DNA of 64,000 bases from a candidate division WOR-3 bacterium UBA2258 (GCA_002347155.1 DDXO01000120.1:17709-81708); one strand, 5' to 3'; counted from the stretch's first letter, positions 23,281-38,213 are shown. Numbers and translations: made by a program. The notes: generated from the letters alone by a model not told the origin.

Positions 23281-24552
23281 CTATGGCGTACGGGATTCGT
23301 GCGGGTGGGGTCGGGAACGCTCGCGCCTGTCGGCAGCTCGCCGGTCCGAAGCCGCCCTGAGTTGTGCGTTTTTCGTCGCCACGGTAGGCCGAACCCCGAC
23401 GCGCAGCCGGTCGAATCTGGAATACCGAACCTGTGGTGCAAAACCTCTCTGTCGCGGAGTTGCTCTGCCTTCGTCACCTGTGCGCTGATCGCGTGTTTCG
23501 TCTGGCTGGGCAATCCGCGCGCGCGCTTCCTGAGTCCTCACCACGGTCAGGTGTCCCAGACAGACAAGTAGTTGGAGGATGACGATGGCAGTCCTGCCGG
23601 CCGGGCCGACACGCAGATAGAATAGCGCCAGCGCCAACGAAACAAGGCCCAGACCGACATAAAAAAGCGTGACCCGCAGGTGGCTCCAGCCAGCCTGCAG
23701 GAGTCTCTCGTAGAGGTGTGTGCGGTGAGCCTGCCAGAACTTCTCGCCACGGAAGATGCGTCGCAGCAGCGTGTAGCTTGTATCGAACAGGAAGCTGCTG
23801 TAGAGAATGATGAAAAACACCATCGGTACCGACTGCCTGCCGGGCGCGGCCAGCCGGATTGCCAGCACCGACAGCACAAACCCTATTGTGAGACTGCCGA
23901 CGCCACCCATGAACACCTGGGCCGGAGGGAAGTTGTACCACAGGAACCCGAGGCAGGCCGCGGTAACGGCCACTGCAATCACGCCCTCGTACGGATGACC
24001 CGTGGCAAAGGCCGCCGCAGCGACGCCTGCGGAGTACACGACAGCCAGACTGTTCGCCAGCCCATCAGCGCCGTCGATGAAGTTGAAGAAATTCACCAGA
24101 CCCGTAATCCAGAGCACTGTCAGAGGAACTGCGGCCCACAGAAGCACGACACCGGACCCCCAAGGCAGTGAGAACTCCTGCAACACCATGCCTGCGCCAA
24201 CGACCAGCATGGCGGCTCCGGCCTGTAGGAGCAGTCGCAAGTAGGTGGGCGGGTTGCGGAAGTCGTCCCAAAGACCGACGGCTGCGACAAGCGCCGTGGC
24301 GACGGCGAAGAGGATGAGAGCCCCGCGTGGCTCCCCCTGGCTGCGCGCGCCAAGCATCAGAAGCAGGGCCAGGAAGAGCGATAGCGCAAGCCCGACACCG
24401 CCAGACGTCGCCGTTGGAATGTCGTGAGAACTGCGGCAATTGGGAACATCTATCGGTGCACCTCTGCCTACTCTCCCCAGAACAAGACGCGCACCTACGG
24501 TAGACACCGCAAGCGAAAACAAGCTCAGAACCAGTACTTTCAGTTCAAACAC
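23281..24552 (-). CDS. polyprenyl-phosphate sugar-1-phosphate transferase (glycosyltransferase family 4; WecA/MraY-like)
   Basis: Multi-TM protein with NFFNFIDGADGL (MraY/WecA signature). Confidence 0.85.
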   Translation of the reverse strand: MFELKVLVLSLFSLAVSTVGARLVLGRVGRGAPIDVPNCRSSHDIPTATSGGVGLALSLFLALLLMLGARSQGEPRGALILFAVATALVAAVGLWDDFRNPPTYLRLLLQAGAAMLVVGAGMVLQEFSLPWGSGVVLLWAAVPLTVLWITGLVNFFNFIDGADGLANSLAVVYSAGVAAAAFATGHPYEGVIAVAVTAACLGFLWYNFPPAQVFMGGVGSLTIGFVLSVLAIRLAAPGRQSVPMVFFIILYSSFLFDTSYTLLRRIFRGEKFWQAHRTHLYERLLQAGWSHLRVTLFYVGLGLVSLALALFYLRVGPAGRTAIVILQLLVCLGHLTVVRTQEARARIAQPDETRDQRTGDEGRATPRQRGFAPQVRYSRFDRLRVGVRPTVATKNAQLRAASDRRAADRRERSRPHPHESRTP

Positions 24553-25928
24553 TGCGTAACTGTCTCAATCCAGATCGGTTCCTGCACACGCGCCTCCCTT
24601 TCAGGGAGTCGAGCGCGACGCGGCAGACCGAACTCGGTGATCTGCTGGTGGCCTCCATATTTGATTTCCTAAGTGCCACGCCGAGCATGCCCTCGCCCGG
24701 CTGCTTCGACGTGACCCGAGAGCGCCCCGGATCAGCTTTCCCCTCCCTCGTCAAATTGATGCAGGGAGAAAAAGAAAAGACCCCGGCGGTTAGATACGTG
24801 CACATTCCGTTCCACAGACGGTGTTGGAGGGCGTCGATGTATCACCCCCAGGCTATGTGAGTTGCCCGACACGAGCGTGCCGCCGCCGCCGTTGGAATCA
24901 CAGCCGCCACCTCGCTTTGCCGCGATTCACGGCAGCGGCTGCCGCAGACTGCGAAGGCAGCGCGTGGCGAGAACAGCGGGTGGCACCCAGCGCCAACCGA
25001 GCTGTGACGTCTCCCTGCTTCTGCTGCTGGCCGTCGGGATGGCTGCGCCGCGCCATGGGTTGCTTTGAAGACTTAGCACTCCCGTAGGCAGAGAGCCCGC
25101 CTTAAGGCGAGGACACCGAATGACAGGCTCCGCTTGGGTAGCGCAATTCGAATGCAGACAGTCCTCGAGACACACCGATGCGCACCCACGCGTCGGCGCT
25201 GCCGCTCGTGCGTTGCAGGACCGGCGCGATGCAAACGCCCACTGGCGCCACTGTACCCCGTGCCTGCGCGAAGCAGTGCGCCTGACGGACACGGGACGGA
25301 CCGTAACCACGGGTCGAGGCGACGCGGTCTTGGCGGTTCTTCAGCGCACGCTCCTGCCACGTCCAGCATCGCAGGACCCATGGTCTGATTATGCAGGAAC
25401 TGAGCGAAGGATGAGAACGAGGGGGTGCTCCGCTCTCGTCTCCCCTGCTCATGGCAGCGGCGCCTTTGCGCTTCCCCCCGAGAGGCGGTGTTTTTCCTTG
25501 CCTGAGCCACTCTCGTCCGGTATATTCCAAGGGACTTGGAGTCTATCGTCGTCGGTTGGTGCTGGAATCGCGGACACGGGACGCTGCCTGTCCCGAGGCC
25601 GGCAGTGCTGCTTTCTAGAGAAGGACAGGTGCAGACCGCTGCCAGAATCTGCGGCAACAGCGCCGGGAAAACCGGCTGCTATCCCTTCCGTCCGGTTCTC
25701 TCCGAGGCCAAGTCACATAGCCACAACATGATACGACAACCAGGGCCCCTCAAAGATGGAACGGAAGGTGCACACTATGATAGCTTATGGCTGTGCGCAC
25801 TTCCTCCGCCTCGCTGCCTGTCGGGCAACTGGTTGGAGTCGTATTTGGACGCCCGCCCGCAGCTTGTGCGGCCCGAGGTCGGCACGCGACCGACACCGGA
25901 CGGCTCGACGCTGGCTGCCTGACACGAC

Positions 25929-26231
25929 ATGACTCTACCTGACATACCGATACCCAATCCTGCGGCAGTTCAGGAAGTGGGGGCTGACGGCTGGACCCTG
26001 CTGGTGAACCCGGACACCACCGGTGCGATGGCCGTGAACCAGACCGGGGCCCTTGTCTGGAAGCTGGTAGATGGCCGGCGTACGGCCGATGAGATTATTG
26101 CCGCGGTCCGAAGCCGCTTTCCGGATGCGCCGGACAACGTGGCTGAAGACGTGCGGGCACTTCTGACCAAGCTGGCCGACGAAGGGTTCGTCGGCCGGGA
26201 GATACCGCTTAAGGGGACACCTCATGAGTGA
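25929..26231 (+). CDS. PqqD-family peptide chaperone (RRE), type A, copy 1
   Basis: ...GWTLLVNPDTTGAMAVNQTGALVWKLVDGRRTADEIIAAVRSRFPDAPDNVAEDVRALLTKLADEGFV is the PqqD/RRE pattern. ~70% identical to 26498-26827. Confidence 0.8.
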   Translation: MTLPDIPIPNPAAVQEVGADGWTLLVNPDTTGAMAVNQTGALVWKLVDGRRTADEIIAAVRSRFPDAPDNVAEDVRALLTKLADEGFVGREIPLKGTPHE

Positions 26232-26508
26232 GAAGACCTATCGAGCAAACGAAGTCGTTTCTTGCGTTGACGAGGGCGAAGATGGGGCCATGCTCTATAA
26301 CCCGGACAAGGACGACACGGTCATCCTGAATCCCTCCGGCCGCAGCATCTGGGCCCTGCTGTCCGCCCCCCGAACTATTGACGAGATTGCAGGTCATCTC
26401 GTATCCGCCTATCCGAGCATCACGCGAGAGCAGGCACGGAAGGACGCGGAGCAGTTCCTAGAGTCTCTTGTCCCCGATTTCGCAACTCCCTCAACCGATG
26501 AGCACTGA
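26224..26508 (+). CDS. PqqD-family peptide chaperone, type B, copy 1
   Basis: ...AMLYNPDKDDTVILNPSGRSIWALLSAPRTIDEIAGHLVSAYPSITREQARKDAEQFLESL. Paralogue of 27060-27353. Overlaps its neighbours by 8 and 11 nt. Confidence 0.75.
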   Translation: MSEKTYRANEVVSCVDEGEDGAMLYNPDKDDTVILNPSGRSIWALLSAPRTIDEIAGHLVSAYPSITREQARKDAEQFLESLVPDFATPSTDEH

Positions 26509-26827
26509 GCCACTGCCAATCCCCGACCTGACCCTGCCCGACCCGCCGATGCCGAATCCATCCGCCGTCCGCGACGACGGGGAAGACGGCTGGACGCTCC
26601 TGGTGAATCCCGACACCGCCGGTGCAATGGCTGTGAATGCGACCGGCGTGCTCGTCTGGAGCCTCGTAGACGGCAAGCGTACTATCGAACAGATTGTTAC
26701 CGCGGTGAAGGACCGGTTTCCGGATGCGCCGGACACGGTGAGAGACGACGTGCTCGCATACCTGACGAAACTGACCGAGGAAGGCTTCATTGGTCAGGAA
26801 ATACCATTTCTAGACACGAATCGCTAG
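26498..26827 (+). CDS. PqqD-family peptide chaperone, type A, copy 2
   Basis: ATG 26498 overlaps the upstream stop (ATGAGCACTGA). GWTLLVNPDTAGAMAVNATGVLVWSLVDGKRTIEQIVTAVKDRFPDAPDTV... Confidence 0.8.
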   Translation: MSTEPLPIPDLTLPDPPMPNPSAVRDDGEDGWTLLVNPDTAGAMAVNATGVLVWSLVDGKRTIEQIVTAVKDRFPDAPDTVRDDVLAYLTKLTEEGFIGQEIPFLDTNR

Positions 26828-27059
26828 GAGCGCCGGGAGGCCATGGGAAGAGGGAAGAGGTGACATTGAGACCTTCCGCTGTCGGCGTACTCCGTGGTTT
26901 ACTAATGAGAGCAGGAAATGTTTGTCATTCTGAGGCGTTCGACGCCGAAGAATCTGACAACAAGCGAAGGGCTCAGGGTGACAGGGTATAGGGATACTGA
27001 GAGTGACATCAAGAACTGTCCAGTGTTTCATGCTCTCCGTAATATAAGGAGCTAGACCA

Positions 27060-27353
27060 ATGAACAAGACTACATATCGAGTGAACGAAGTCGTGTCCTG
27101 CGCCGACGAGGACGAAGACGGAGCGATGCTCTACAATCCGGACAAGGATGAAACGGTGTTGCTGAATCCCACCGGCCGCAGCATCTGGGCTCTGCTTGGT
27201 GCCCCTCGGACCCTCGACGAGGTCGCCGACCACCTGACGGCTACCTATCCGGGCGTGACAAGTGAACAGGCTCTGCAGGATGCCGACAAGTTCATCCAAT
27301 CGCTGCTGCCGGATTTCGTACTATCCGAAGGTGGGGACGCTGATGCCCGCTAA
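27060..27353 (+). CDS. PqqD-family peptide chaperone, type B, copy 2
   Basis: MNKTTYRVNEVVSCADEDEDGAMLYNPDKDETVLLNPTGRSIWALLGAPRTLDEVADHLTATYPGVT... RBS AAGGAG. Confidence 0.75.
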   Translation: MNKTTYRVNEVVSCADEDEDGAMLYNPDKDETVLLNPTGRSIWALLGAPRTLDEVADHLTATYPGVTSEQALQDADKFIQSLLPDFVLSEGGDADAR

Positions 27354-28521
27354 GAAAGCGCGAAAGGCGAAGGTAAACCCGGCACCTCAGCCGATGCCGG
27401 ACATGACCGTGCCGCCGCCGGGTCTCATGCGATTTCCCAAGTCGGTTGACCTTTCGCTCACTGGACGCTGCAACCTCAAGTGCCGCTACTGCTTCTACGC
27501 CGACGAGATGACCGCGCTCAATGACATGCCGGCGGAGCGCTGGCACGCCTTGTTCGAAGAACTCAGCAGGCTTGGTGTTCACAATGTCTGCCTCTCGGGC
27601 GGTGAGGTCTTCACCCGCCCCGACCTGTTTGAGCTGATCGATGGTGTAATCGCGAACAAAATGCGCTACAACATACTCACCAACGGCACGCTCATCACCG
27701 AGGACACGCTGGAGGAATTCGCGAAGGGCAAGCGCCGTCTGAGGCTGAGTTCAGTCCAGGTTTCAATAGATGGGTCCTGCGCCGAGATTCATGACAAGAG
27801 CCGGCCCCCGAAGAGCTTCGACCGGGCCCTGCGCGGCCTCCGTCTGCTCAAGCAGGCCAAGTTCCCGGTGACCGTGCGCGTGACCGTCAACCGGGCTAAC
27901 GTGAACGACCTGCCCAACATCGCCCGACTGCTGCTCGAGGATGTGGGTCTTGGCGCGTTCAGCACGAACGAGGCTGACCAGATGGGTTCTGCCCGGTGCT
28001 ATGGCGACAGCACAGTCCTCACTCGCTCCGAGCGAAAGCAGGCGATGGAGACTCTGGCGAGGCTGAACAAGCAATACGGAGGCAGAATCAGCGCCACTGC
28101 CGGACCACTTGCCACGGCTACAAACTTCGCCCAGATTGAGGAGGCAATCGCGCAGGGGAAGACCGGCATGCCAGGCCGGGGTACCCTGTGTTCCTGCGGC
28201 GGGGTTTTCCAGAAACTGGCTGTACTCCACGACGGAACAATCGTCCCCTGCAATATGCTGCCCAAGCTCGTCATGGGCGTCTACGGTCACCAGTCACTCG
28301 CCGAGGTCTGGCGCAACAGCCCTGCGGTCAATGTCGTTCGCTACCGGCGCCAGATACCAATACTGTCGTTGCCCGAGTGCAAGGACTGCTCGTACGCCGG
28401 TTTCTGCACTGGCGGCTGCCCGGCCTCGGTCATGGCCAAGTTCGACAGGTTGAACGCCCGTGACCCTCTAGTCTGCTACCGCATCTTCAAAGGAGAGGAG
28501 AAACAAAGTGTCGATATGTGA
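27343..28521 (+). CDS. radical SAM / SPASM-domain peptide-modifying enzyme 1
   Basis: CNLKCRYC (CxxxCxxC) rSAM cluster. C-terminal SPASM cysteines CSCGG...PCN...CKDCSYAGFCTGGCP. Start ATG 27343 overlaps the upstream stop. Confidence 0.9.
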   Translation: MPAKKARKAKVNPAPQPMPDMTVPPPGLMRFPKSVDLSLTGRCNLKCRYCFYADEMTALNDMPAERWHALFEELSRLGVHNVCLSGGEVFTRPDLFELIDGVIANKMRYNILTNGTLITEDTLEEFAKGKRRLRLSSVQVSIDGSCAEIHDKSRPPKSFDRALRGLRLLKQAKFPVTVRVTVNRANVNDLPNIARLLLEDVGLGAFSTNEADQMGSARCYGDSTVLTRSERKQAMETLARLNKQYGGRISATAGPLATATNFAQIEEAIAQGKTGMPGRGTLCSCGGVFQKLAVLHDGTIVPCNMLPKLVMGVYGHQSLAEVWRNSPAVNVVRYRRQIPILSLPECKDCSYAGFCTGGCPASVMAKFDRLNARDPLVCYRIFKGEEKQSVDM

Positions 28522-29686
28522 GCCGGTCCCCAGTCCCCAGTCCCCAGTCCCCAGTCCCTTAGACCTACCTGAGGGTGTACCGGCTTTGCGGGCGTTCTAT
28601 CTCTACATGTCCAATACCTGCAACCTCCGTTGTCGCCACTGCTGGATAACGCCGGGATTCGGCGACGGCAAGGAGACGCCAGGCGATTTTGTGGACCCCG
28701 AGGCGCTGCGTCAAGCCGTGGTCGAAGCCAAACCGCTCGGGCTTTGCTCGGTGAAGCTGACCGGTGGCGAACCGATGCTCCATCCCCGTTTCATGGAAAT
28801 CGCGGACCTGTTGACGGCGGAGGGGATGCACATGGACATGGAGACCAATGGCACCCTCATGACCGCTGAGAAGGCGCGTCATCTGAAAGAAAAGACGAGT
28901 GTCACATTCATCTCGGTCAGCCTGGATGCACCTGACGCCCGCTCGCACGACAGCTTCCGTGGAGTACCCGGCGCGTTCGACGCAGCCGTGCGCGGGCTCG
29001 ATTGCCTGGTGAACGCCGGGTACAGAAACTGCCAGGTTATCATGAGCGTTCACAAGGGCAATCGCCACCAGGTCGAGGAAGTTGTCGCTCTTGCCGCAGC
29101 CCATGGTGCAAATTCGGTGAAGTTCAACCCGGTCACCAGGACCGGCCGGGGCGCGGCAATGGAGGAAAGCGGCGAGGTAATGGACTACGACGAGCATCTC
29201 GCCTTTGCGCGGTATGTGTCAACCGAGCTACGTCCGAAAGCCCGGGTTGGAGTCATCCTCAATATGCCCCCGGCCTTGTCATCGATGCGCGACCTCTTGC
29301 GTACCCACGGCCGGACCGGTGACTGCGGTGTTTTGCGCATCCTTGGGGTATTGGGGAATGGCGACATCGCCCTGTGTGGCATCGGCCGGACAGTCCCGGA
29401 ACTGGTCTACGGGAAACTCGGCCGCGACAGCATTCGCGACATCTGGTTCTCCAACCCGACGATCCTCGGTCTGCGCCGAGCCCTGACGGACGTTGATGCG
29501 CTGCCGCTCCCCTGCGCCAAGTGTCTGTTCGTGAGGACATGTCGCACCGGGTGCGTGGCGAACAACTACACGGAAAGCGGGTCGTTGATTGCGCCGACCT
29601 GGCTGTGCGCGGAGGCTGAACGCCGCGGCGTCTTCCCGGGCAAGCGAGCGCAGAGAAGGACGTCTGGGGGCGAAAGAAAGGGATAG
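28508..29686 (+). CDS. radical SAM / SPASM-domain peptide-modifying enzyme 2
   Basis: CNLRCRHC; SPASM CGIGRT...CAKCLFVRTCRTGCV. GTG start overlaps rSAM-1 by 14 nt. The N-terminus contains the (CCCCAGT)4-encoded PVPSPQSPVPSP. Confidence 0.9.
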   Translation: MSICEPVPSPQSPVPSPLDLPEGVPALRAFYLYMSNTCNLRCRHCWITPGFGDGKETPGDFVDPEALRQAVVEAKPLGLCSVKLTGGEPMLHPRFMEIADLLTAEGMHMDMETNGTLMTAEKARHLKEKTSVTFISVSLDAPDARSHDSFRGVPGAFDAAVRGLDCLVNAGYRNCQVIMSVHKGNRHQVEEVVALAAAHGANSVKFNPVTRTGRGAAMEESGEVMDYDEHLAFARYVSTELRPKARVGVILNMPPALSSMRDLLRTHGRTGDCGVLRILGVLGNGDIALCGIGRTVPELVYGKLGRDSIRDIWFSNPTILGLRRALTDVDALPLPCAKCLFVRTCRTGCVANNYTESGSLIAPTWLCAEAERRGVFPGKRAQRRTSGGERKG

Positions 29687-29840
29687 ATGGATTCCGCGCC
29701 AGTGGAACACGAAAACGGAATGAAACGTGGACATGTGGAATCCGTCACGCATTCATTTAGTGCCCCTGGCCTCGGCTGCCCCTGTCCGACAGTGCGTGCT
29801 TTCGTGGCTCCAGTGTCGGATTCAGGAGAACGGGTTTTGC

Positions 29841-29870
29841 TTGACATGGAGGGCAGGGGGGGTGTAGAAT
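29841..29870 (+). promoter_or_regulatory. sigma70-like promoter upstream of precursor A (TTGACA-N18-TAGAAT)
   Basis: ttgacatggagggcagggggggtgtagaat, ~60 nt upstream of the precursor A start codon. This is the only consensus-like -35/-10 pair I saw in the cluster. Confidence 0.4.
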
Positions 29871-29929
29871 GATGTCGCCTACCAACCAGAGAGGGCTACA
29901 GGTCCGATAAAGTACTTAGGAGGTTAGTG

Positions 29930-30190
29930 ATGCCAGAAAAAGACGAGTCCAAGTATGACGCTCCGAGAGCAGTGCGGCTTGTTGATGCTGCGAGCGCACG
30001 GGGCAGTTGTTATTCCGGGGACACTCCCGGTGAAAGCTGCTACGACGGTAGCAACGACGTGTCGTGCAATACAGGTACCGGTGCACAGGCTTACTGCGTC
30101 AACAATGGCAGTAATGCCGCCGGCTGTGACGTAGGCAACTCTCCTGCGGTGAAGGGCTGCGAAGCAGGCCTCGGAGTCCACGCGCTGTAG
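29930..30190 (+). CDS. RiPP precursor peptide A (86 aa; leader about 1-23, core with 6 regularly spaced Cys)
   Basis: MPEKDESKYDAPRAVRLVDAASA|RGSCYSGDTPGESCYDGSNDVSCNTGTGAQAYCVNNGSNAAGCDVGNSPAVKGCEAGLGVHAL. AGGAGG RBS is 6 nt upstream. Shares the leader motif YDAPRAxRLxDxAxA-RG with 32214-32498. Confidence 0.7.
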   Translation: MPEKDESKYDAPRAVRLVDAASARGSCYSGDTPGESCYDGSNDVSCNTGTGAQAYCVNNGSNAAGCDVGNSPAVKGCEAGLGVHAL

Positions 30191-30198
30191 CAGAAGCC

Positions 30199-30265
30199 AA
30201 GGTCCTGTCGTCCGAAGCGGCAGACAGAGAACCTGCCTGGGTGTCCATGTAGGATGACAGGACCT
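30199..30265 (+). other. stem-loop downstream of precursor A (aaggtcctgtcgtcc ... ggatgacaggacct)
   Basis: 10-14 bp stem, no U-tract; possible transcript-stabilising or attenuating hairpin. Confidence 0.3.
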
Positions 30266-30396
30266 CGGACGGACGGAGCCTCGCAGTCTTGGCGCGGAAC
30301 GGAAACGAAGAACGCTGTTGTCTCTCGTTCATTTCGTGATGTGGGCTTGGCTGTGCAAGCTGAGGCACACGCAGCGGGCGGCTAGAAGGAAAACGC

Positions 30397-32202
30397 TTGG
30401 TGTCCAGAACTGAGCAATCCCAGGTTTCGCAGCGCCCTTTGAGACTAGAACTGGCTGACGGCAGTCGGTGGACGATTATCGGTGCGGACGAGCCGTCAGT
30501 CCTCGTAGTGTCAGAACTGGGCAAAACCATGCGCCTTATGCCCGGCGCTGTGGGTCGCGAGCTGTACGCAGTCGTGTCTTGTGACAGACATCACGACCCG
30601 CAGAAGCCGAGCCGGAACGGCGCGGCTGTGTGCTGGCTTTCCCCGTTGCTCGATCGAAGCCTGCAGATCATCCAGATGGAGAGAATCGCGAAGTTGATTG
30701 CGTTGGAGTCTCTATCGCAGGGCGGTTTGCTTCTCCACTGTGCACTGGCCGAGTACAAGGGAGCTGGCTACGTGATGGCCGGACCCAGCGGAGTCGGCAA
30801 GAGCACCGCCAGCAATCGACTTCCGCTGCCCCATCGTTCGCTATGCGACGACCGGACCCTCGTCGTGCGAGACTCCACCGGCCAGTACTGGGCGCATCCC
30901 TGGCCGACTTGGAGCCAGTTGCACGACGGGAGAGACTCTTCGTGGCCGGTCGAAAACGCCGTCCCACTGCGGGGAATGTTCTTTCTCGGCCAATCCGCGT
31001 CTGTGCGACTCCAGCCGACAGGCCGGACGCAAACGACTGCTCTGATAATGGAATCGGCATTCGACCTTATCCTGGCGATCGCGAGGCTGTCCGAAGTCAG
31101 CGCTTCCACGAAACTCTGGGAAAACCACCTTGGTGCGGCCAAGGCTCTGGCTGCCGCAGTGCCGGCCTATTCACTTGAGATGAGCCTTGACGGCGAATTC
31201 TGGAATGAGATAGAGCAGGTACTGACCGTTATCGGCGATGACGGGGCCAGACAACCGCCTCCCGGCAAGCAGCAGTCCTCGCTCGACTTTCTCCGTGCCG
31301 GTGCACACAACTCCGAGGCGTTCCCGTCAGAAACGGGCGACGGCAGGCTGCGCGCCGTCTGTCTGGGAAGCGCCATGAACCTGACGCTGGCGGAAGCTGA
31401 CATACTCGAAGTCGAACCCTACGGCCGGCGCCGGGTTCGTCCGGGAGACGTCGTCTGCTTCATGTCTCCCGAGAATGCTGAGACGTGTGTGCGGCGTGTC
31501 GTGTCAGTCGAGGGTCGAGGGACGAGGGACGAAGGACTGCGGGACGCAATCCTGACGCGCGGTGACAACAACCCAAACAATGACCCGTGGCTCTTACGGA
31601 GCGAGGACATTGTCGGACGGGTTGTCGCCGCGCGACGCGGCTCTCGCCGGCGACCGATAGACGGAGGTCTGAGGGGACGGATGACAGCCGTACTGCTGCG
31701 CGGCCTGTGGTCGTTACGAGCATTCGGCCAAAGGGTACCTCTTCGTTTGCGGGAGGTTGCCATTAGAGTTGGCTCGCTCGAAGGCGCGCTTCCTCAGTAC
31801 CTCAGGCCCCGGCTGGTGAAGTTCAACGGACGCCACTGGGTGAAACTCAAGCTGCTGCTCGCCGAACGAGAGATCGGACGTTACGACTGCTATGCTCAGG
31901 CGTGGCGTGTTCGGCAGCCGTTTCGTATGTTGCTGGACCTGAGCAAGTTACCGGGGCGATCGATATGGAGCCGTGCCAACTTAGCGGGGGCGCGTCTGCG
32001 ACCCGCACGAAGGCACGAGGAGAACGGTCTGCTGACGGCGTCCAGGACGGCCTTTGCGGCCGGACGCGGTGATTCAGCGAAAAGAGATCCAACAGAATCG
32101 TCGGGCAGTGCCCGGCGACAGAGAAGTGCCAACCGCGCCGCCTCGACCATCGTCGAGGCGGCGGTCGAATTCGTGACCAGTGAACCGGAGAACATACCTT
32201 AA
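30397..32202 (+). CDS. HprK-related kinase (P-loop GPSGVGKST) fused to a catalytically inactive S26/signal-peptidase-like domain
   Basis: N-terminal half ...LHCALAEYKGAGYVMAGPSGVGKSTASN resembles the HPr kinase C-terminal domain. The C-terminal half aligns with the S26 peptidase at 34891-35685 (ILEVEPYGRRRVRPGDVVCFMSPE, TRGDNNPNNDPW), but it has GSAMNLTL where the paralogue has GPSMNPTL and RRV where the paralogue has HRV. Confidence 0.75.
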   Translation: MVSRTEQSQVSQRPLRLELADGSRWTIIGADEPSVLVVSELGKTMRLMPGAVGRELYAVVSCDRHHDPQKPSRNGAAVCWLSPLLDRSLQIIQMERIAKLIALESLSQGGLLLHCALAEYKGAGYVMAGPSGVGKSTASNRLPLPHRSLCDDRTLVVRDSTGQYWAHPWPTWSQLHDGRDSSWPVENAVPLRGMFFLGQSASVRLQPTGRTQTTALIMESAFDLILAIARLSEVSASTKLWENHLGAAKALAAAVPAYSLEMSLDGEFWNEIEQVLTVIGDDGARQPPPGKQQSSLDFLRAGAHNSEAFPSETGDGRLRAVCLGSAMNLTLAEADILEVEPYGRRRVRPGDVVCFMSPENAETCVRRVVSVEGRGTRDEGLRDAILTRGDNNPNNDPWLLRSEDIVGRVVAARRGSRRRPIDGGLRGRMTAVLLRGLWSLRAFGQRVPLRLREVAIRVGSLEGALPQYLRPRLVKFNGRHWVKLKLLLAEREIGRYDCYAQAWRVRQPFRMLLDLSKLPGRSIWSRANLAGARLRPARRHEENGLLTASRTAFAAGRGDSAKRDPTESSGSARRQRSANRAASTIVEAAVEFVTSEPENIP

Positions 32203-32213
32203 GGAGGTACGAC

Positions 32214-32498
32214 ATGGATAATCAGAAGAGCCCGGAGCCGAACGAGCGCGTTCGCTCTGGATATGATGCACCACGTGCCCAGAGACTGAGCGACGTGGCA
32301 CCGGCACGCGGCGATGACTGCGGTCCAGGCAACGCCGCAGATCCTGGGCAATGCAGTGGCAACGGCAGTGCTGCTCAGAATACCTGCACCAATGGCGGCC
32401 AGGCGGTTGCCTGCAAGGACAACGGCAACATAGCGACTCTCTCGTGTTATGGCGGGAGTGGCGCAACCGAGTGCGGTAACGGAAACTCAGCCATATAG
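32214..32498 (+). CDS. RiPP precursor peptide B (94 aa; leader about 1-31, core with 6 regularly spaced Cys)
   Basis: MDNQKSPEPNERVRSGYDAPRAQRLSDVAPA|RGDDCGPGNAADPGQCSGNGSAAQNTCTNGGQAVACKDNGNIATLSCYGGSGATECGNGNSAI. AAGGAGG RBS overlaps the kinase stop codon. Confidence 0.7.
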   Translation: MDNQKSPEPNERVRSGYDAPRAQRLSDVAPARGDDCGPGNAADPGQCSGNGSAAQNTCTNGGQAVACKDNGNIATLSCYGGSGATECGNGNSAI

Positions 32499-32647
32499 GC
32501 ATCGGATAAGGCAGAGAGTCGAAACCAAGACTGACTGCTGTCGGGTTGGCTGACCCTTCGCGGGGAGCAGGCCGGCGTAGGCAACCGGGACGCACGCGGG
32601 GAGGCGTCTGCTAAACGTCCCCTTCCTGCAGCACTTGGTAAGATAGA

Positions 32648-32694
32648 CCGGGCCGGAGTCCCGCAATCCGGCCCGGTTGGTTCTTGTTGCTTGC
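32648..32694 (+). terminator. rho-independent terminator after precursor B
   Basis: accgggccgga-gtcccgcaa-tccggcccggt followed by tggttcttgttgcttg. Confidence 0.6.
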
Positions 32695-32982
32695 GAAGTA
32701 CCCTGCTGCAGGCCTTGGCCGGAATGGCTGTACGCCCGCGTGGTGGCAAAGGGGCCAGTGGTGACCAAAAGAGGTGAACCGCTGAGTCCCCGCCACGGAG
32801 TGGGACTTCAGACGCAAGATCCGGAGCGCCTGCTGTCTGACAGTAATCGCATCGGCCAATCAACATTGAACCCCTGGTTCCCCCACTCCGTCCCTTTGCT
32901 GCATTCGAGCTAGATAATGTCGGTTCTGGGGTACTGAGATGACTTGCCCGGTATATCTGCTTTGGTAGACTGCTGACGGCCG

Positions 32983-34845
32983 ATGGATTCACAACCAGCA
33001 GAAGACTCGCGACCCGGGATGGTCGAGACCCTGAAACAGGGTCTGCATCTGGGTCGCGCGCTTCGTCTCGTCTGGTCCATCGCTCCGGGCTGGGCGGTGA
33101 TGAACCTTGTCCTGGTTTTCGTGCAGGGATTCATGCCTCTGCTTGCACCCTACTTCATGAAGCGCACCATCGATGCCCTGCAGGCCGCCATGGCGATGCA
33201 GACCGGCCTTACCGCCTTTCGCCCGGTCCTATTCTGGGTCATTCTTGCCGCCGCGGCAGCGTTACTGTCAGCGCTGCTTAACTCATTCTCCGGGCTGGCC
33301 GGCCAGTACCAGTCCATGGTTTTTTCCGACAAGGTGACCGACATTGTGCACAGCCAGTCGGTCGCGGTTGACCTTGAGTACTACGAAAATCCCAGCTACT
33401 ACAACACCATGCAGCGAGCTCAGGTCGAGGCACATTCCCGGCCCATCGGTGTTGTCAACCGCCTCGTCACCATCGGCAGGAGCATGGTTTCGCTCGTCGG
33501 GGTCGCCGGCTTGCTCCTCGCTTTCAATCCGCTGGTCGCACTGGCCCTCTTCTGTGTGGCCTTGCCCGGAGCGCTTGTGCAGTCGGTCTTTGCGCGCCGC
33601 CAGTACCGCCTTGAACTGGCGCAGACCGAGAAAGAACGCCAGGCGTCATACTATCACTTCATGCTGACCGGTTCGTGGTTTGCCAAGGAACTGCGGTTGT
33701 TCAACCTGGGGTCTTTGTTTCGGACCCGGTTCCAAGGCCTGCGTCAGCAACTACGCGGAACGAGACTGGCCTTGTCCCGGCGGCGCACCGTTGCCGGTCT
33801 GCTGGCCGGGTCCCTGACCTCAGGGGCTATCTTCGGCTCCCTGGCCTTCGTTGCCTATCAGGCCTACCTGGGGAAAACCACGCTCGGCAGTCTCGTGATG
33901 TACTACTCCATTTTCCAGCTCGCAGTCGGCTCATTCTCGAGCGTACTGAGCGGAGTGGCCGGACTCTACGAAGACAACCTCTTCCTCACCAATTTCTACA
34001 AATTCATGGACCTGAAGCCGCGGGTCATGGTGCCGGCGAGTCCGGCCCCGACTCCGACCCGAATCAGTCAGGGCGTCGCGTTCCATGACGTGCACTTCGC
34101 GTACCCGAGCGACTCCCGGACGGTGCTGGATGGGGTCAACCTGAATATCGCTCCGGGCCAGGTTGTTGCGCTGGTTGGCGCAAACGGCTCTGGCAAGACC
34201 ACGCTGGTTAAGCTCCTGTGCCGGCTCTACGACCCGGACTCGGGCACTATCACTGTTGACGGCACCGACCTCCGACGTCTGGACCCGGTGGGATGGCGCC
34301 GGAAAGTCAGCGTCATCTTGCAGGACTATGTTCAGTATGGCATGACAGCCTGGGAGAACATCTGGATGGGCGACGCGGAAAGAGAGCCGGACCGGAGCCG
34401 AATCACCCGGGCGGCCGAACTCTCCGGCGCTGACTCGGCAATCAGGAAACTGCCCCAGGGGTATGACACTCCGCTGGGCTTTCAGTTCAAGCGCGGCCGG
34501 GAGCTGAGCATCGGCGAGTGGCAGAAAGTGGCTCTGGCTCGTGCGTTCCTCCGCGATTCGGAACTGGTCGTCCTGGACGAGCCCACCAGCTCACTCGACC
34601 CTTTGGCCGAGGCCGAGGTATTCGACCACTTCCGACGAGCTATACGGGGCAGAAGCGCGGTGCTCATCAGCCATCGCTTCTCCACCGTGAAGATGGCCGA
34701 CTACATCTATGTCCTCGACCACGGTCGGGTCGCGGAGTCCGGCACCCACCAGGAACTCTTCGACCGGGGCGGCCTCTATGCCCATCTCTACTCAGTCCAG
34801 GCCGCCCGGTATCAGGCCCAGCCAACAGACCAGCGTGCAGGCTGA
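32983..34845 (+). CDS. ABC exporter, fused permease/ATP-binding protein
   Basis: N-terminal 6-TM domain. Walker A GANGSGKTT, signature LSIGEWQKVALARAF, Walker B LVVLDEPTSSLD. Confidence 0.9.
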   Translation: MDSQPAEDSRPGMVETLKQGLHLGRALRLVWSIAPGWAVMNLVLVFVQGFMPLLAPYFMKRTIDALQAAMAMQTGLTAFRPVLFWVILAAAAALLSALLNSFSGLAGQYQSMVFSDKVTDIVHSQSVAVDLEYYENPSYYNTMQRAQVEAHSRPIGVVNRLVTIGRSMVSLVGVAGLLLAFNPLVALALFCVALPGALVQSVFARRQYRLELAQTEKERQASYYHFMLTGSWFAKELRLFNLGSLFRTRFQGLRQQLRGTRLALSRRRTVAGLLAGSLTSGAIFGSLAFVAYQAYLGKTTLGSLVMYYSIFQLAVGSFSSVLSGVAGLYEDNLFLTNFYKFMDLKPRVMVPASPAPTPTRISQGVAFHDVHFAYPSDSRTVLDGVNLNIAPGQVVALVGANGSGKTTLVKLLCRLYDPDSGTITVDGTDLRRLDPVGWRRKVSVILQDYVQYGMTAWENIWMGDAEREPDRSRITRAAELSGADSAIRKLPQGYDTPLGFQFKRGRELSIGEWQKVALARAFLRDSELVVLDEPTSSLDPLAEAEVFDHFRRAIRGRSAVLISHRFSTVKMADYIYVLDHGRVAESGTHQELFDRGGLYAHLYSVQAARYQAQPTDQRAG

Positions 34846-34890
34846 AGGAAAGGTGAAGGTCCAGGTAGAGGTAGAGGCAAAGGCAGAGGA
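34846..34890. repeat. intergenic spacer made entirely of purine-rich hexamer repeats
   Basis: gaaggaaaggtgaaggtccaggtagaggtagaggcaaaggcagagga lies between the ABC stop and the S26 start. Confidence 0.6.
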
Positions 34891-35685
34891 ATGACTGAGG
34901 GACAGCAGCGGACGGCAGGCCCCGGGAAGGGAGAACCAGATGCGCTTGCTTCGAACAGGCCGGGCTGGACGGCCGACTTCCCTTCGGTTGAGTCAATCGT
35001 AGTCGACGGTCGGCGGCGCGTCGTCTATACCGGGCCCAGCATGAATCCGACCCTGCGCGTGCCGGACATCCTGTGGGTAGAACCATATGGGAAAAGGCCT
35101 GTACGAGCCGGAGATGTCGTCTGCTTCGCGTCGCCTGAGCTTGACACCAACATCGTACACCGCGTCATCTCCGTCCGTCCTTCGTCCCCAGTCCCTGGTC
35201 CCTCGTCTCCCGTCTCCGGTCTCCGGTCTTCCGTCCTCGGTCTTCCGTCTCCGGTCGCCATCCGGACGCAGGGCGACAATAACCCATTGGCCGACACCCG
35301 GGTTCTTGCGCCTGCTGACCTATTGGGGCGGGTAGTGGCGGCGCAGCGCGGCACGCGGCTCCGTTCCATCCATGGTGGCCACGCCGGCCTGATGGTCGCT
35401 TGGAGTGTAAAGCTGGGAAAGGCGATCTGGGGGGTCGTTGCCGGCGTCGCGAGCGCCGTCTACCAGAGCCTCATCCAGGGAAGTCGGTTTGGCTTCCTGC
35501 TGCCCGGCGGCCTGAGACCCAGACTGGTCTCCTTCAAAGGACGTGACGCACCGATCTTCAGGGTGCTTATGGGCGGTCGGACGGTCGGACACTATGACTA
35601 TCGCTACCATCAGTGGCACATCCGGCGACCATTCCGCTTGTTCGTGGACGAACGTACCCTACCCGACCCGAAGTCCAAGGACTAG
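34891..35685 (+). CDS. signal peptidase I-like S26 peptidase, SipW/Sec11 (Ser/His) type, probably the leader peptidase
   Basis: GPSMNPTL (box B Ser) and IVHRVISV (box D His) both intact; RTQGDNNPLAD box. In-frame insert of CCGTCT-family repeats (PSSPVPGPSSPVSGLRSSVLGLPSPV) at 35170-35258. Confidence 0.75.
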   Translation: MTEGQQRTAGPGKGEPDALASNRPGWTADFPSVESIVVDGRRRVVYTGPSMNPTLRVPDILWVEPYGKRPVRAGDVVCFASPELDTNIVHRVISVRPSSPVPGPSSPVSGLRSSVLGLPSPVAIRTQGDNNPLADTRVLAPADLLGRVVAAQRGTRLRSIHGGHAGLMVAWSVKLGKAIWGVVAGVASAVYQSLIQGSRFGFLLPGGLRPRLVSFKGRDAPIFRVLMGGRTVGHYDYRYHQWHIRRPFRLFVDERTLPDPKSKD

Positions 35686-35732
35686 TTTATGGTTGCAGGT
35701 TCTAAGTTCCTGGTTTCCGGCTCGGAATCGAA

Positions 35733-37055
35733 ATGACTAGCGCGGTTGAGACACTGTTCCAGTACCTCTGTCCTAAGTCCCCCGTCCCTCGTCCCCCGTC
35801 CGACCAGGAACCTGAAACCAGTGACTTGGTACTTCATCCGTCCAACCAGGAACCTGAAACCAGTGACTTGGTACTTCATCCGTCCAACCAGAAACCTGAA
35901 ACTAGTAACCAAGAACTTTTGGGCGTTGACTGGAACGCCGTCATCGACACGGCTGCCCACAACAGCCTCGAGCCGCTGCTGTTCAAGCGTCTCAAAGAGA
36001 GCGGCACGCGGGCCTATGTCCCAGCAGGCTCCTGGGAAAGGCTGCGACAGGCCTACTTCAGCAGCGCCCAGAAAAACCTGCACCTCTATCGAGAACTCCG
36101 GCCGGTACTTCGCCGCCTGCGCGACTCCGGCATCCCGGTGATTGTCCTGAAGGGGGCCTTTCTGGCCGAGGCGGTTTACGGCGACGTCGCACTCCGGCCG
36201 ATGTGCGACGTCGACCTCATGGTACCGAAAGCAGAGCTGCCGAAAGCCCAGACAATCCTGCTCGACATGGGCGGCGTTCAGAAGGACCCCACAGGAAACG
36301 AGGCGTTCTGGAGGGAACACCACCACCCTCCGCCGACCTACCTCCGCGACCTCTCCATTGAGCTTCACTGGACCATCGCCGACCCCACCGGGCCCGTCAA
36401 AATAGACCCTGCCGGGCTCTGGTACAGGGCGCAACGAGCTACGATAGCGGGCGTCGAACTGCTGGCGTTATCCCCTGAAGACCTGTTGGTCCACCTCTGT
36501 GTGCACTTCGGCGGTGAACACCATCTCAACGGATTGCGCTCCTTCTGCGACATCACTGAGACTATTCGCCTCCGCGGCGGAGACATGGACTGGCAGCAGG
36601 TCGTAGACTCGACTCGCGAGTGGCTTGCTGCAAGATACGTAGGCCTGACACTCCATCTCGCCCGACGCCTGGTGGGCGCGGGCGTACCGGATGATGTGCT
36701 TGAACGGTTAGTCCCCGGTGGCATTGACGAGCACGTACTGGAATTGGCGAGGCAGCTCGTACTTGCCGACACCGGTTATGCCCCGTGGTCACCGGTTTCC
36801 GGCCTCGTAGGCGCCAGGTCATTCAATGACAAGACAAAGCTGCTGTGGCAGCGGGTCTTCCTTTCACGTGACGAAATGGCCAGGGTCTATCCCGGCTCTC
36901 GCGAATCGCGCTTTCTCTGCCGCTACTACGCGCTGCGGGTCAGGGATGTCATACGGAATCGTGGGGCGACCGTAGTGAAGCTGGCCAGGAGTCCTGACTT
37001 CGCAGAGAGCACTACGGAGAGTGCGGTCGTGGCCAACTGGCTGAGATCCGGGTAG
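35733..37055 (+). CDS. nucleotidyltransferase family protein (NTP_transf_5-like, as found in lasso/sactipeptide clusters)
   Basis: ...GIPVIVLKGAFLAEAVYGDVALRPMCDVDLMVP... The ORF N-terminus is encoded by a 45-bp tandem repeat (EPETSDLVLHPSNQ x2.5); the true start may be downstream of the repeat. Confidence 0.7.
   Translation: MTSAVETLFQYLCPKSPVPRPPSDQEPETSDLVLHPSNQEPETSDLVLHPSNQKPETSNQELLGVDWNAVIDTAAHNSLEPLLFKRLKESGTRAYVPAGSWERLRQAYFSSAQKNLHLYRELRPVLRRLRDSGIPVIVLKGAFLAEAVYGDVALRPMCDVDLMVPKAELPKAQTILLDMGGVQKDPTGNEAFWREHHHPPPTYLRDLSIELHWTIADPTGPVKIDPAGLWYRAQRATIAGVELLALSPEDLLVHLCVHFGGEHHLNGLRSFCDITETIRLRGGDMDWQQVVDSTREWLAARYVGLTLHLARRLVGAGVPDDVLERLVPGGIDEHVLELARQLVLADTGYAPWSPVSGLVGARSFNDKTKLLWQRVFLSRDEMARVYPGSRESRFLCRYYALRVRDVIRNRGATVVKLARSPDFAESTTESAVVANWLRSG
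35805..35905. repeat. 45-bp tandem direct repeat, ~2.5 copies
   Basis: ccaggaacctgaaaccagtgacttggtacttcatccgtccaac x2, then a degenerate partial copy. Confidence 0.75.
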
Positions 37056-37223
37056 CGCATCTGTCGCACGCGCTGCTGGGTCTGGGGCCAGCGCCGTGGC
37101 CCCAGCTTCCGTCGATTCTGAGTCCCCTAACCTCTCGCCTCCGACTGCCGACCCGGGCCAGGCCAAGGCTCGCGGATTCTCTGACTTGCCTGGAGCCGGG
37201 CAGTTGTCGCGGCGCTTCTCAGG

Positions 37224-38213
37224 TCACAGCTTCGGGTCGCCATCACCTGACACCGGTTCCCGGCGTGACTTATGTTGGCTGCGGCGGATATCCTCAAGCA
37301 TCAGTACAGCGCGGGCGGCAGCTACGCCAGGCACGCGTGGTAGCCGTGCGAGCAGTCCGCGCAGCGGGTATGCAAGCGCCACAGCCAGAGCTGCCTGTGG
37401 CCGGTAGGCGATGCCTAGCTGGCAGTGGATCAGCCGGAACCCGAGTCTCTGCAGGACATCGTTGTAGCTGGTGTCGTGTAGAACCGTACGAGTACCGTTC
37501 AGGAGCTTCATACCGCGCTTCAAGACGTACTCCTCCTGAAGAGTGCGCGTGAGCGCGAACACGACACGATTTCGGAGATGGTGAGGATGATAATACAAGT
37601 ATGACTGATGCACCCACTCGCCGCCGATGATTCTCTCGCAAAAGGCCGCCAGTTCACCCGCGACCAGTACAGCCCAGTGTTCAAAGGGACCGTCGGCCTT
37701 GTTGAGCATATACTCGGACCACGCCCATTCATGCCCCGGCCGCAGCCCCCGGCTCGACATGGCGGCGACGTAGCACGAGTAGCCTCGCTCGGCCAGCCAG
37801 CCGGGCTCGGCTCTTTGTACGGAACATCGCTCATACCCGATGTGGACGTGACGCCGGTCTCTCTTGCCAAGAGCCTCCAAGTCCGGGACGCTGTCGCACA
37901 CTACGTAATACCAGCCTGTTGGCTCCTGCGAAATGTGACCGGCGTAGCGCAGCAGCCACGCACGTGACTCGCGGAGTAGCCGGACGGCCTCATCGTTCTG
38001 TAGGACCACCGGGACCGGTACGTCGTCCACGGGCAGAAGTACATGTCTGTTGACGCACCATACGATTCCGCCGCCCGAATAGAGGCGTATGCCGCGTGCA
38101 CGCAGGTAATCTACCCGACTGGGCCGGTTTGCTGCTCCCGCGCTTCCTGGAACTCCGCCCGCACTACCCAACTGCAGACCTCCCTGGCGTGTGTGTGAAC
38201 GCAAACCGTACAC
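37224..38213 (-). CDS. hypothetical protein (possibly FemAB/GNAT-like), last gene of the polysaccharide locus
   Basis: Coding-like. No family assigned. Confidence 0.3.
   Translation of the reverse strand: MYGLRSHTRQGGLQLGSAGGVPGSAGAANRPSRVDYLRARGIRLYSGGGIVWCVNRHVLLPVDDVPVPVVLQNDEAVRLLRESRAWLLRYAGHISQEPTGWYYVVCDSVPDLEALGKRDRRHVHIGYERCSVQRAEPGWLAERGYSCYVAAMSSRGLRPGHEWAWSEYMLNKADGPFEHWAVLVAGELAAFCERIIGGEWVHQSYLYYHPHHLRNRVVFALTRTLQEEYVLKRGMKLLNGTRTVLHDTSYNDVLQRLGFRLIHCQLGIAYRPQAALAVALAYPLRGLLARLPRVPGVAAARAVLMLEDIRRSQHKSRREPVSGDGDPKL

Follow-up and report, generated by a model that had tools for sequence, protein, structure and literature searches.

The SynChlorMet (SCM) cassette, which was reportedly defined by computation by Haft and Basu in 2011, is already catalogued by protein-family models. 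These models describe one or several PqqD proteins, two PqqE-like radical S-adenosylmethionine (rSAM)/SPASM enzymes, the protein ScmC and a short Cys-rich precursor. The same gene set was found, in the same order, in a 64,000-nucleotide stretch of DNA from the candidate division WOR-3 bacterium UBA2258 (GCA_002347155.1, DDXO01000120.1:17709-81708), referred to here in its full length as the window. The cassette occupies positions 25929-37055, with all genes on the plus strand, and comprises two small genes, pepA and pepB, that are the main subject of this work. The locus is a divergent example of the SCM cassette. Taking all the evidence together, we consider it somewhat better than an even call that pepA and pepB encode divergent ScmA-type precursors of a duplicated SCM cassette for a peptide synthesized on ribosomes and then modified post-translationally (RiPP), matured by the full pathway proposed below.

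Sactipeptide and ranthipeptide clusters resemble the SCM cassette in that maturation relies on an rSAM/SPASM enzyme and recognition on a PqqD-type element, and in that the core repeats Cys at regular intervals; freyrasin (PapB), with its six repeated Cys-Asp rings, and SCIFF are examples of such peptides. They differ from the SCM cassette, which always has two rSAM enzymes and discrete PqqD proteins and whose further members are an S26 peptidase and two other proteins, one HprK-like and one of the PF14907 family. The PapB and StsB models are weak matches to ScmE, and no conserved acceptor at a fixed distance from Cys (CxxxD or NxxC type) was found in the SCM family. The clusters of the lasso peptides (paeninodin, pseudomycoidin and the Bradymonas bsf cluster) present other likenesses, namely discrete PqqD proteins, a P-loop protein of the HprK type whose catalytic residues are the same, a PF14907 protein, an ATP-binding cassette (ABC) exporter and, if the SCM leader is cut after GxG, a Y-x-x-P-x-[hydrophobic] motif starting at -17. 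In lasso precursors, the YxxPxL motif spans -17 to -12 and is recognised by the PqqD-type B1 protein (PMC10368454). The HprK-like kinase and the PF14907-type nucleotidyltransferase of lasso clusters phosphorylate and then glycosylate the peptide (PMC8498205); the residue set H...GxxGxGKST...DD is needed in the lasso kinase BsfK, which is stimulated by a PqqD-type partner (PMC10368454). Instead of the lasso enzymes, SCM cassettes contain two rSAM enzymes and an S26 serine peptidase, and their core is a repeat of Cys modules and not a ring and tail. Among the open reading frames (ORFs) of 25929-37055, neither a lasso cyclase (Asn-synthetase-like) nor a B2 transglutaminase-like cysteine protease was matched, and for this reason the locus is not regarded as a lasso system. 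By predicted gene content, the SCM cassette resembles the sactipeptide and ranthipeptide systems in its enzyme class and Cys periodicity, and has the leader logic and tailoring genes of lasso clusters.

The gene order in the window is four PqqD/ScmD genes, ScmE, ScmF, pepA, a ScmC-S26 fusion, pepB, an ABC exporter, a standalone S26 peptidase and an NTP_transf_5 protein. The ScmC protein (30397-32202, 601 aa) scored 148.2 bits against the NCBIfam model TIGR04249, above the cutoff of 125, and its homologues carry the annotation ScmC with PF27840. The two rSAM/SPASM enzymes approached the cutoff of 400 of their models: the ScmE-like protein (27343-28521, 392 aa from the ATG at 27343, a length matching that in L001, with Radical_SAM and SPASM domains) reached 388.9 bits against TIGR04250 (E = 1.9e-116; next-best family 130 bits) and the ScmF-like protein (28508-29686) 339.9 bits against TIGR04251 (E = 2.1e-101; next-best family 134 bits). 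The four chaperones obtained 31-62 bits against the ScmD model TIGR04248, below the cutoff of 100, and all four passed the Pfam PqqD model; on these scores they are PqqD-family proteins and not ScmD equivalogs. No match of pepA or pepB to the ScmA model TIGR04252 (49 positions) was obtained, even at E <= 10. The comparison set was composed of 80 ScmC-encoding loci from species-representative genomes. A relative is encoded by 176 loci, belonging to WOR-3, Methanothrix, Methanoregula, Desulfobacterota, Acidobacteriota, Lentisphaerota, Chloroflexota and others. The loci that have PqqD, ScmE, ScmF and ScmC together are called complete cassettes (n = 44, all from other genomes), and the order of the window's neighbourhood, with precursor, PqqD, ScmE, ScmF and ScmC, agrees with them. 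By its architecture and by ScmC, the locus is classed as an SCM cassette in which ScmE, ScmF, ScmD and the ScmA-like precursors are divergent.

The evidence that pepA and pepB are the precursors came from their own sequences and from their relatives. pepA (29930-30190) encodes 86 residues from its ATG, an alternative GTG at 29927 lying only 3 nt after the ribosome-binding site; pepB (32214-32498) encodes 94 residues. The leaders read SKYDAPRAVRLVDAASARGSCY for pepA and SGYDAPRAQRLSDVAPARGDDC for pepB, and the two products are related to each other (BLASTP E = 2e-8). A sequence-only reading of the window had described a common leader motif YDAPRAxRLxDxAxARG and six Cys residues per core, and both were recovered as quoted, Cys being counted directly on the translations at positions 27, 37, 46, 56, 66 and 77 of pepA and 36, 47, 58, 67, 78 and 87 of pepB. 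It had also placed a small residue before each Cys; the residues found there are S, S, S, Y, G and G in pepA, which agrees, and D, Q, T, A, S and E in pepB, which agrees only in part.

No match of pepA or pepB to Pfam or NCBIfam was found, even at E <= 10. A word-indexed homology search recovered close relatives only, one for pepA and six for pepB, from WOR-3-like metagenome bins; these seven homologues, at 56-99% identity, retain the leader motif. Searched against 1.84 billion proteins, a profile built from the relatives matched 66 cluster representatives at E <= 1e-3; after one iteration, it detected at least one small ORF in 43 of the 44 complete cassettes. The matched ORFs were on the ScmC strand in 86 of 91 cases, and 79 were located within 5 kb upstream of ScmC. 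Since 13 of 41 tested members match the ScmA model TIGR04252 (best E 8e-7), the precursor family corresponds to the ScmA superfamily and is much wider than the current model. Both ORFs are conserved in a related WOR-3 metagenome-assembled genome (MAG; L001), with a ratio of non-synonymous to synonymous substitution rates (dN/dS) of 0.34 for the pepA core and 0.27 for the pepB core. The sequence-only reading was to be abandoned if homologous loci lacked these ORFs or if purifying selection was missing; the ORFs were present and the dN/dS values are 0.27-0.34, and the family-wide synteny upholds its proposal that pepA and pepB are RiPP precursors for the neighbouring rSAM/SPASM enzymes. pepA and pepB thus belong to a widespread peptide family, present in bacteria and methanogenic archaea, which adjoins PqqD, ScmE, ScmF and ScmC/S26 genes, and this conservation identifies them as real, selected genes and as the predicted natural substrates of the cassette. 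In two members of the family from a deltaproteobacterial MAG (L081, 6734-7219 and 15243-15867), the leader and the Cys modules are separated by a long run of repeated Gly-Thr dipeptides. The other frames of this run read as 'NWDRDRD' strings, and it may be a repeat expansion or an assembly artefact.

To describe the leader, counts were made on 142 unique family members with the Tyr of the motif as position 0; Pro at +3 was imposed by the pattern with which the motif was anchored. Position 0 is Tyr in 138/142 sequences and +1 is Glu in 87; +5 is A, V, L or I in 132; +7 is Arg in 98 and Pro in 22; +8 is Leu in 128; +9 is G, S or D; and +10 is Asp or Glu in 100. The resulting consensus is Y-[ED]-x-P-x-[AVLI]-x-[RP]-L-[GSD]-[DE]. 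Further downstream, +14 is Gly in 94 sequences and Ala in 31 (125 for [G/A]), +16 is Gly in 126, and the first Cys stands at +18 or +19. In the pepA leader (M1-G25, 29930-30004), the motif reads Y9-D-A-P-R-A-V-R-L17 and the leader ends in A23-R-G25, the boundary after G25 being putative; in the pepB leader (M1-G33, 32214-32312), it reads Y17-D-A-P-R-A-Q-R-L25 and the end is A31-R-G33.

A cleavage directly before RG, after an A-x-A, had been proposed in the sequence-only reading (ASA↓RG in pepA, after A23 at base 29998, and APA↓RG in pepB, the arrow marking the cut). In the family, this A-x-A corresponds to +12/+14, and +12 is Ala in 52/142 members and Arg or Lys in 30/142. When a -3/-1 rule was applied (-3 in AGSCTVLI, -1 in AGSCT), it was obeyed in 77/142 sequences at that site versus 133/142 two residues downstream, after +16, where the sequence is [G/A]-x-G; two untrimmed pepA entries were mis-anchored in this count, an error of at most 2 sequences. 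The alignment of homologues therefore confirmed the Y..P...L leader motif and the Cys periodicity and did not extend to A-x-A before RG, which as a conserved cleavage site is local to the window's clade. In this clade both candidate sites satisfy the -3/-1 rule, so that a cut at ASA↓RG and APA↓RG might occur there. A cut after +16 places Tyr at -17, Pro at -14 and the hydrophobic residue at -12, a spacing like that of the lasso motif described above, and some family members weakly match the lasso leader model NF033521. Because of the better fit to the rule (133/142) and of this lasso-like Tyr spacing, ARG↓S in pepA and ARG↓D in pepB are preferred to ASA↓RG and APA↓RG, and a cut after the conserved [G/A]-x-G appears the most likely.

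The cores of pepA (30005-30190, stop codon included) and pepB (32313-32498, stop codon included) each contain six Cys residues in modules of 9-11 residues. The Cys periodicity of about 10 residues is a property of the whole family: 93% of 580 Cys-Cys intervals are 8-12 residues long, with modes at 10 (226 intervals) and 11 (214), and the number of Cys per core varies from 3 to 10. When the intervals were anchored on the downstream Cys, Gly was observed at -7 in 328/550 and Ala at -4 in 274/550, which defines the module as C-x-x-G-x-x-A-x-x-x, or G(-7)-x-x-A(-4)-x-x-x-C. Besides Cys, only this Gly (+3/+4) and this Ala (+6/+7) are fixed in position; Asp, Asn, Ser and Thr are enriched at no fixed position. 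The Asp, Asn and Thr side-chain acceptors that had been suggested for the cross-links are consequently unsupported by conservation, these residues being frequent and never fixed in position. After the last Cys, the tail measures 6-9 residues in 116/142 members and carries Gly at +3/+4 in 139/142, as a half-module devoid of Cys. Every Cys thus keeps a downstream half-module, in agreement with each Cys being linked locally, once, to a residue shortly downstream of it. Thioether chemistry on Cys is plausible.

The suggestion that each rSAM enzyme could serve one precursor was contradicted by 35 complete cassettes with a single precursor, which still encode both ScmE and ScmF; both enzymes are therefore expected to act on the same peptide. 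The similarity of ScmE and ScmF to characterised enzymes is diffuse and extends to AhbD, WgkB, MftC, NirJ, StsB, PapB and PqqE.

Removal of the leader was then considered in the light of the two S26 sequences of the window. In the ScmC fusion, an HprK-like P-loop domain (residues ~1-290) is followed by a degenerate S26 domain (~310-520) that gave no Pfam S26 match. Its Ser motif reads LGSAMNLTL (Ser to Ala) and its His motif VRRVV (His to Arg), GDNN being retained, and by these replacements the S26 domain fused to ScmC is catalytically dead in the window. The standalone gene (34891-35685) encodes a SEC11/SipW-type serine peptidase of 264 aa with intact Ser and His and no transmembrane anchor. 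It scored 24.6 bits against PF10502 (cutoff 22.9) and 45.1 against the NCBIfam model TIGR02228 (cutoff 51.85). Its motifs are TGPSMNPTL, IVHRVI and GDNN, the Ser and His being aligned with SGSMEP and VHRV of human SEC11A/C; the engineered SGAMEP form in the deposited structure 9rjb marks the position of the catalytic Ser.

The same replacements were present in the close homologues of the fusion (P0008-P0027), all of which have Ala at the Ser site and Arg at the His site where the motif is readable. In more distant ScmC-S26 fusions, Ser and His are almost always kept, and among the 80 loci all cassettes outside the window's clade with both motifs readable are intact, with the domains in either order. 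In all dead-fusion loci with enough downstream sequence, the ABC and NTP_transf_5 genes also enclose a standalone S26 that is intact. The combination of dead fusion and intact standalone enzyme was seen in the window, L001/L003, L083 and L084, and in the P0012 contig a 262-aa gene with a weak PF10502 match is found at the position of the standalone S26. Over ~200 residues, which take in a C-terminal extension common to both, the two S26 copies of the window show 47% identity, and this looks like a duplication followed by inactivation of the fused copy. The pairing of a dead fused copy with an intact standalone one implies that peptidase activity is required by the pathway. As the ABC exporter is devoid of a C39 domain and the cassette has no further protease, S26 is left as the sole candidate for the leader peptidase, and since the fused copy has lost Ser and His, the enzyme at 34891-35685 is the likely peptidase here. 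The idea that the cluster's S26 removes the leader was therefore retained as regards the conserved S26, the only protease of the cassette, and not as regards the domain located between the two peptide genes. The ScmC-fused domain was ruled out as the leader peptidase of the window by the loss of Ser and His, and a C39 peptidase on the exporter by the absence of the domain.

The standalone S26 has no hydrophobic segment before its Ser motif; its KD19 hydropathy maximum is 1.33, in a helix of residues 163-196 whose equivalent in the fused S26 paralogues is Arg-rich. A membrane-bound S26 was also ruled out, no segment reaching the usual transmembrane hydropathy threshold. pepA and pepB have no hydrophobic core either (KD19 maximum 0.5). 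As it lacks an anchor and any hydropathy of transmembrane level, and as the peptides are hydrophilic, the enzyme is predicted to be soluble and to act on a hydrophilic leader. Its AlphaFold2 model (predicted local distance difference test, pLDDT, 81.9) has SEC11C, SEC11A, LepB, SipA and SpsB as top folds in the PDB, and the SM-x-PT, VHRV and GDNN motifs together with the modelled S26 fold relate it to the SEC11/SipW (Ser-His) branch of type I signal peptidases. It differs from these enzymes by the missing N-terminal membrane anchor and, as a cassette S26, by the frequent fusion to an HprK-like domain (found in most cassettes), by an extra C-terminal helix and beta domain, and by presumed substrates without a hydrophobic signal-peptide core. 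The C-terminal extension is shared by the S26 domains of the cassettes (residues 163-250 of the standalone enzyme, ~35377-35640) and consists of a confidently modelled 34-residue helix and small beta domain with the motif LRPRLVxFxGR...G.YD...W.IRRPFRLxVD. No significant structural match to it was found in the PDB, and it might bind the peptide or a PqqD partner. A 7/14/21-bp repeat array at 35177-35256 encodes a Pro/Ser-rich insert with low pLDDT (residues 100-120 of the standalone S26).

The other proteins of the cassette were analyzed in the same way. The chaperones are a1 (25929-26231; PF05402, 9.5e-18; TIGR04248, 3.4e-16, 59 bits for a cutoff of 100), b1 (26224-26508; PF05402, 5.7e-13; ScmD and NF033530 about equal), a2 (26498-26827; PF05402, 9.7e-17; TIGR04248, 6.2e-17) and b2 (27060-27353; PF05402, 2.9e-13; best NCBIfam match the lasso PqqD model NF033530). 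The a2 ORF is open from 26468, and the ATG at 26498 agrees with a 109-aa gene call in L001. a1 and a2 are 67% identical and b1 and b2 70%, for ~32% between a and b types, and against the b-type proteins the lasso PqqD model scores as high as ScmD. The four genes, found likewise in L084, are a tandem duplication of an a/b pair, and this matches the two precursor types of the clade. The window's clade differs from the SCM models by two precursor types, a duplicated PqqD pair, a dead ScmC-S26 and a separate live S26, and looks like a partial duplication with two a/b PqqD pairs, two precursor types and two S26 copies. In the kinase-like domain of ScmC, H114, G134, K135, S136, T137, D151 and D152 are invariant; the protein retains the His, the P-loop GxxGxGKST and the Asp-Asp pair. 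The MsbA/HlyB-like ABC exporter (32983-34845) is a fusion of permease and ATPase, with ABC_membrane from residue 40 followed by ABC_tran, and no C39 peptidase domain was found in it by the Pfam scan. The NTP_transf_5 nucleotidyltransferase-like protein (35733-37055; PF14907, 4.3e-63) and the ABC gene both recur in many SCM cassettes. Because the HprK-like and PF14907 proteins recur there as a pair, tailoring of the phosphorylation/glycosylation type is a reasonable guess. At its N-terminus, the NTP_transf_5 protein has PSNQEPETSDLVLH repeats, which are encoded by a 42-bp tandem repeat (35796-35906, 2.6 copies, 95% matches).

The pathway that we propose would start with the docking of the discrete PqqD-family chaperones on the lasso-like YxxPxL motif of the hydrophilic leader, the two a/b pairs matching the two precursor types. 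ScmE and ScmF would then both modify the same peptide at each 10-11-residue module C-x-x-G-x-x-A-x-x-x. One thioether from each Cys to a residue a few positions downstream seems the most plausible product, and each core would then carry six links. By analogy with the lasso clusters, tailoring by the HprK-like ScmC together with the PF14907 nucleotidyltransferase could consist of phosphorylation of the peptide and then glycosyl transfer. The soluble SEC11/SipW-type standalone S26 would remove the leader, most likely after [G/A]-x-G, and the C39-less ABC exporter would secrete the product. The extension of this scheme to SCM cassettes in general, as an uncharacterised RiPP class of many bacterial phyla and of methanogenic archaea, with a soluble S26 leader peptidase cutting after [G/A]-x-G at 17 residues from the leader Tyr and with a Cys cross-link closing each module, is put forward tentatively and appears to us possible without being probable.

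Several observations weigh against the proposed pathway. ScmE, ScmF and ScmD remain under their NCBIfam cutoffs, and pepA and pepB are without any match to the ScmA model. S26 enzymes normally act at the membrane on substrates with a hydrophobic h-region, and pepA and pepB have none. The [G/A] at +14 is also the -4 residue of the first Cys, a position usually occupied by Ala in the internal modules, and for this reason GxG could belong to the first core module and not be a peptidase signal. The homologues of ScmE and ScmF do not point to thioether formation. The family alignment shows no conserved Ser or Thr at a constant position that a kinase could target, and the first C-x-x-G is followed by Asp in pepA and by Asn in pepB. 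Finally, no experimental publication on the SCM cassette was found in the literature searched (SynChlorMet, TIGR0425x, PF27840), so that every chemical step is inferred. Searches for ScmC, ScmE, ScmF and ScmD returned unrelated acronyms only, two surveys of rSAM RiPPs do not mention the cassette, and a paper on RiPPs in anaerobes mentions HPr kinase in the lasso context only.

Different explanations of the same data were also evaluated. The most serious one, which we nevertheless judge unlikely, is that no thioether is formed on Cys and that the rSAM enzymes carry out epimerisation, C-C linkage or oxidation of Cys to formylglycine, or that Cys is left free or as disulfide to act as metal ligand. 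The nearest characterised relatives of ScmE and ScmF span many chemistries (AhbD, WgkB, MftC, NirJ, PqqE, StsB), no acceptor residue is conserved, and Gly/Ala-rich modules would also suit epimerisation. On the other hand, of the reactive residues Cys alone is conserved in every module, with a strict spacing of 10-11, and no Cys, not even the last, lacks the downstream x-x-G half-module, as would be expected if each closed a local ring of its own. Moreover, an rSAM/SPASM enzyme with a PqqD partner and a Cys-rich core is the sactipeptide/ranthipeptide pattern. Clearly less probable is the sequence-only reading taken literally, with ASA↓RG and APA↓RG cut by S26, links from Cys to Asp, Asn or Thr or to alpha-carbons, and perhaps one rSAM enzyme for each precursor. 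It agrees with the close homologues of the clade, nearly all of which have A, V or G at -3 and A or G at -1 of that site, as in the type I rule; the clade possesses a standalone S26 paralogue of its own, which could have a specificity unlike that of the remaining family, and the enrichment of D, N, S and T in the cores would favour such acceptors. It is opposed by the family-wide count at the A-x-A↓RG site (77/142, with Arg or Lys at -3 in 30), by two close relatives that violate the rule (P0125 with E-R-V and P0129 with P-P-G), by the dead S26 domain between the two peptide genes, by the conservation of both ScmE and ScmF beside single precursors, and by the lack of any acidic, amide or hydroxyl residue at a fixed position of the module.

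A slightly lower probability still is given to an S26 that is not the leader peptidase, and that would cut between modules or process another protein, the leader being removed by a housekeeping protease. Cores with 3-10 Cys resemble multi-core precursors, the G, A and S of every module could fill the -3 and -1 pockets of S26, and there is no direct indication of a contact between S26 and the leader. Yet the best-conserved small-x-small pair is at a fixed distance from the leader motif and outside the modules, in which G and A are spaced by x-x and not by x. The cassette also has no other protease and an exporter without C39, and the presence of an intact S26 wherever the fused copy is dead argues that the activity is needed by the pathway itself. 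As for the possibility that pepA and pepB are chance open frames in GC-rich DNA, the window is rich in spurious ORFs in its six frames and the two peptides have no Pfam or NCBIfam match; against this, each gene has an AGGAGG at ideal spacing, pepA has a near-consensus promoter, the dN/dS values are low and homologues lie beside the same enzymes in 43/44 complete cassettes across phyla. We consider the chance-ORF reading practically negligible, being refuted by the family profile, dN/dS and cassette synteny, and the duplicated SCM cassette with pepA and pepB as its precursors is the reading that we retain.

The expression signals reported in the sequence-only reading were examined at both genes. 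The AGGAGG ribosome-binding sites were read directly at 29918-29923 for pepA and at 32202-32207 for pepB, where the site overlaps the ScmC stop codon, each 6 nt 5' of the ATG. The sigma-70-like promoter TTGACA-N18-TAGAAT is present before pepA (29841-29870) and, with 11 of 12 consensus positions, is the best match in 12 kb (25400-37300). The clean terminator announced after pepB is only in part what was described: a GC-rich hairpin exists at 32646-32678, with a 12-bp stem and a 9-nt loop followed by TTGGTTCTTGTTGC (free energy -34 kcal/mol, z -4.1), but it lies ~150 nt past the pepB stop and its T-tract is interrupted. It is a candidate terminator of which the consensus terminator scan caught only a 5-bp sub-stem at 32668-32680. 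Directly 3' of the pepA stop, an inverted repeat with a 14-bp stem was observed at 30200-30265, and one of its pairs is altered on both sides in L001 (C:G to T:A). The fold of the whole pepA-ScmC intergenic region is not significant (z -0.95) and no T-tract follows the stem; an intrinsic terminator or attenuator between pepA and ScmC was rejected on these grounds despite the 14-bp stem. The repeat might act in RNA processing or attenuation and so fix the ratio of precursor to enzymes.

The cassette is flanked by polysaccharide genes on the minus strand (23281-24552, 38286-39560 and 39786-40511), which encode a Glycos_transf_4 (MraY/WecA-like) protein, a group 1 glycosyltransferase and a WbqC-like protein; L083, L084 and the P0012 contig likewise adjoin glycosyltransferase or polysaccharide export/synthesis genes. 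Just 3' of the cassette, on the opposite strand, a 329-aa ORF (37224-38213) matched neither Pfam nor NCBIfam. Another type of locus was also noticed, in which proteins of ~400 aa with the ScmC N-terminal domain have no S26 motifs (P0110-P0119). It was seen in L046, which comes from the same MAG as L001, and in L031, L032, L035, L037, L038 and L051. These loci have their own, longer precursors with the leader KKYVAPEAxRLG and sometimes share a genome with an S26-containing cassette.

The window and the 80 loci together yield a precursor family far broader than the ScmA model, define its leader motif and module repeat, point to a cleavage site that can be tested and provide comparative evidence tying S26 activity to the pathway. 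We know of no earlier case of a cytoplasmic enzyme of the signal-peptidase type acting as a RiPP leader peptidase, and, if the present interpretation is true, such an enzyme would be new for RiPPs. If true, the SCM reading would give RiPPs both a leader peptidase of a new type, in most cases fused to an HprK-like kinase, and a modular scaffold, also new, of variable length.

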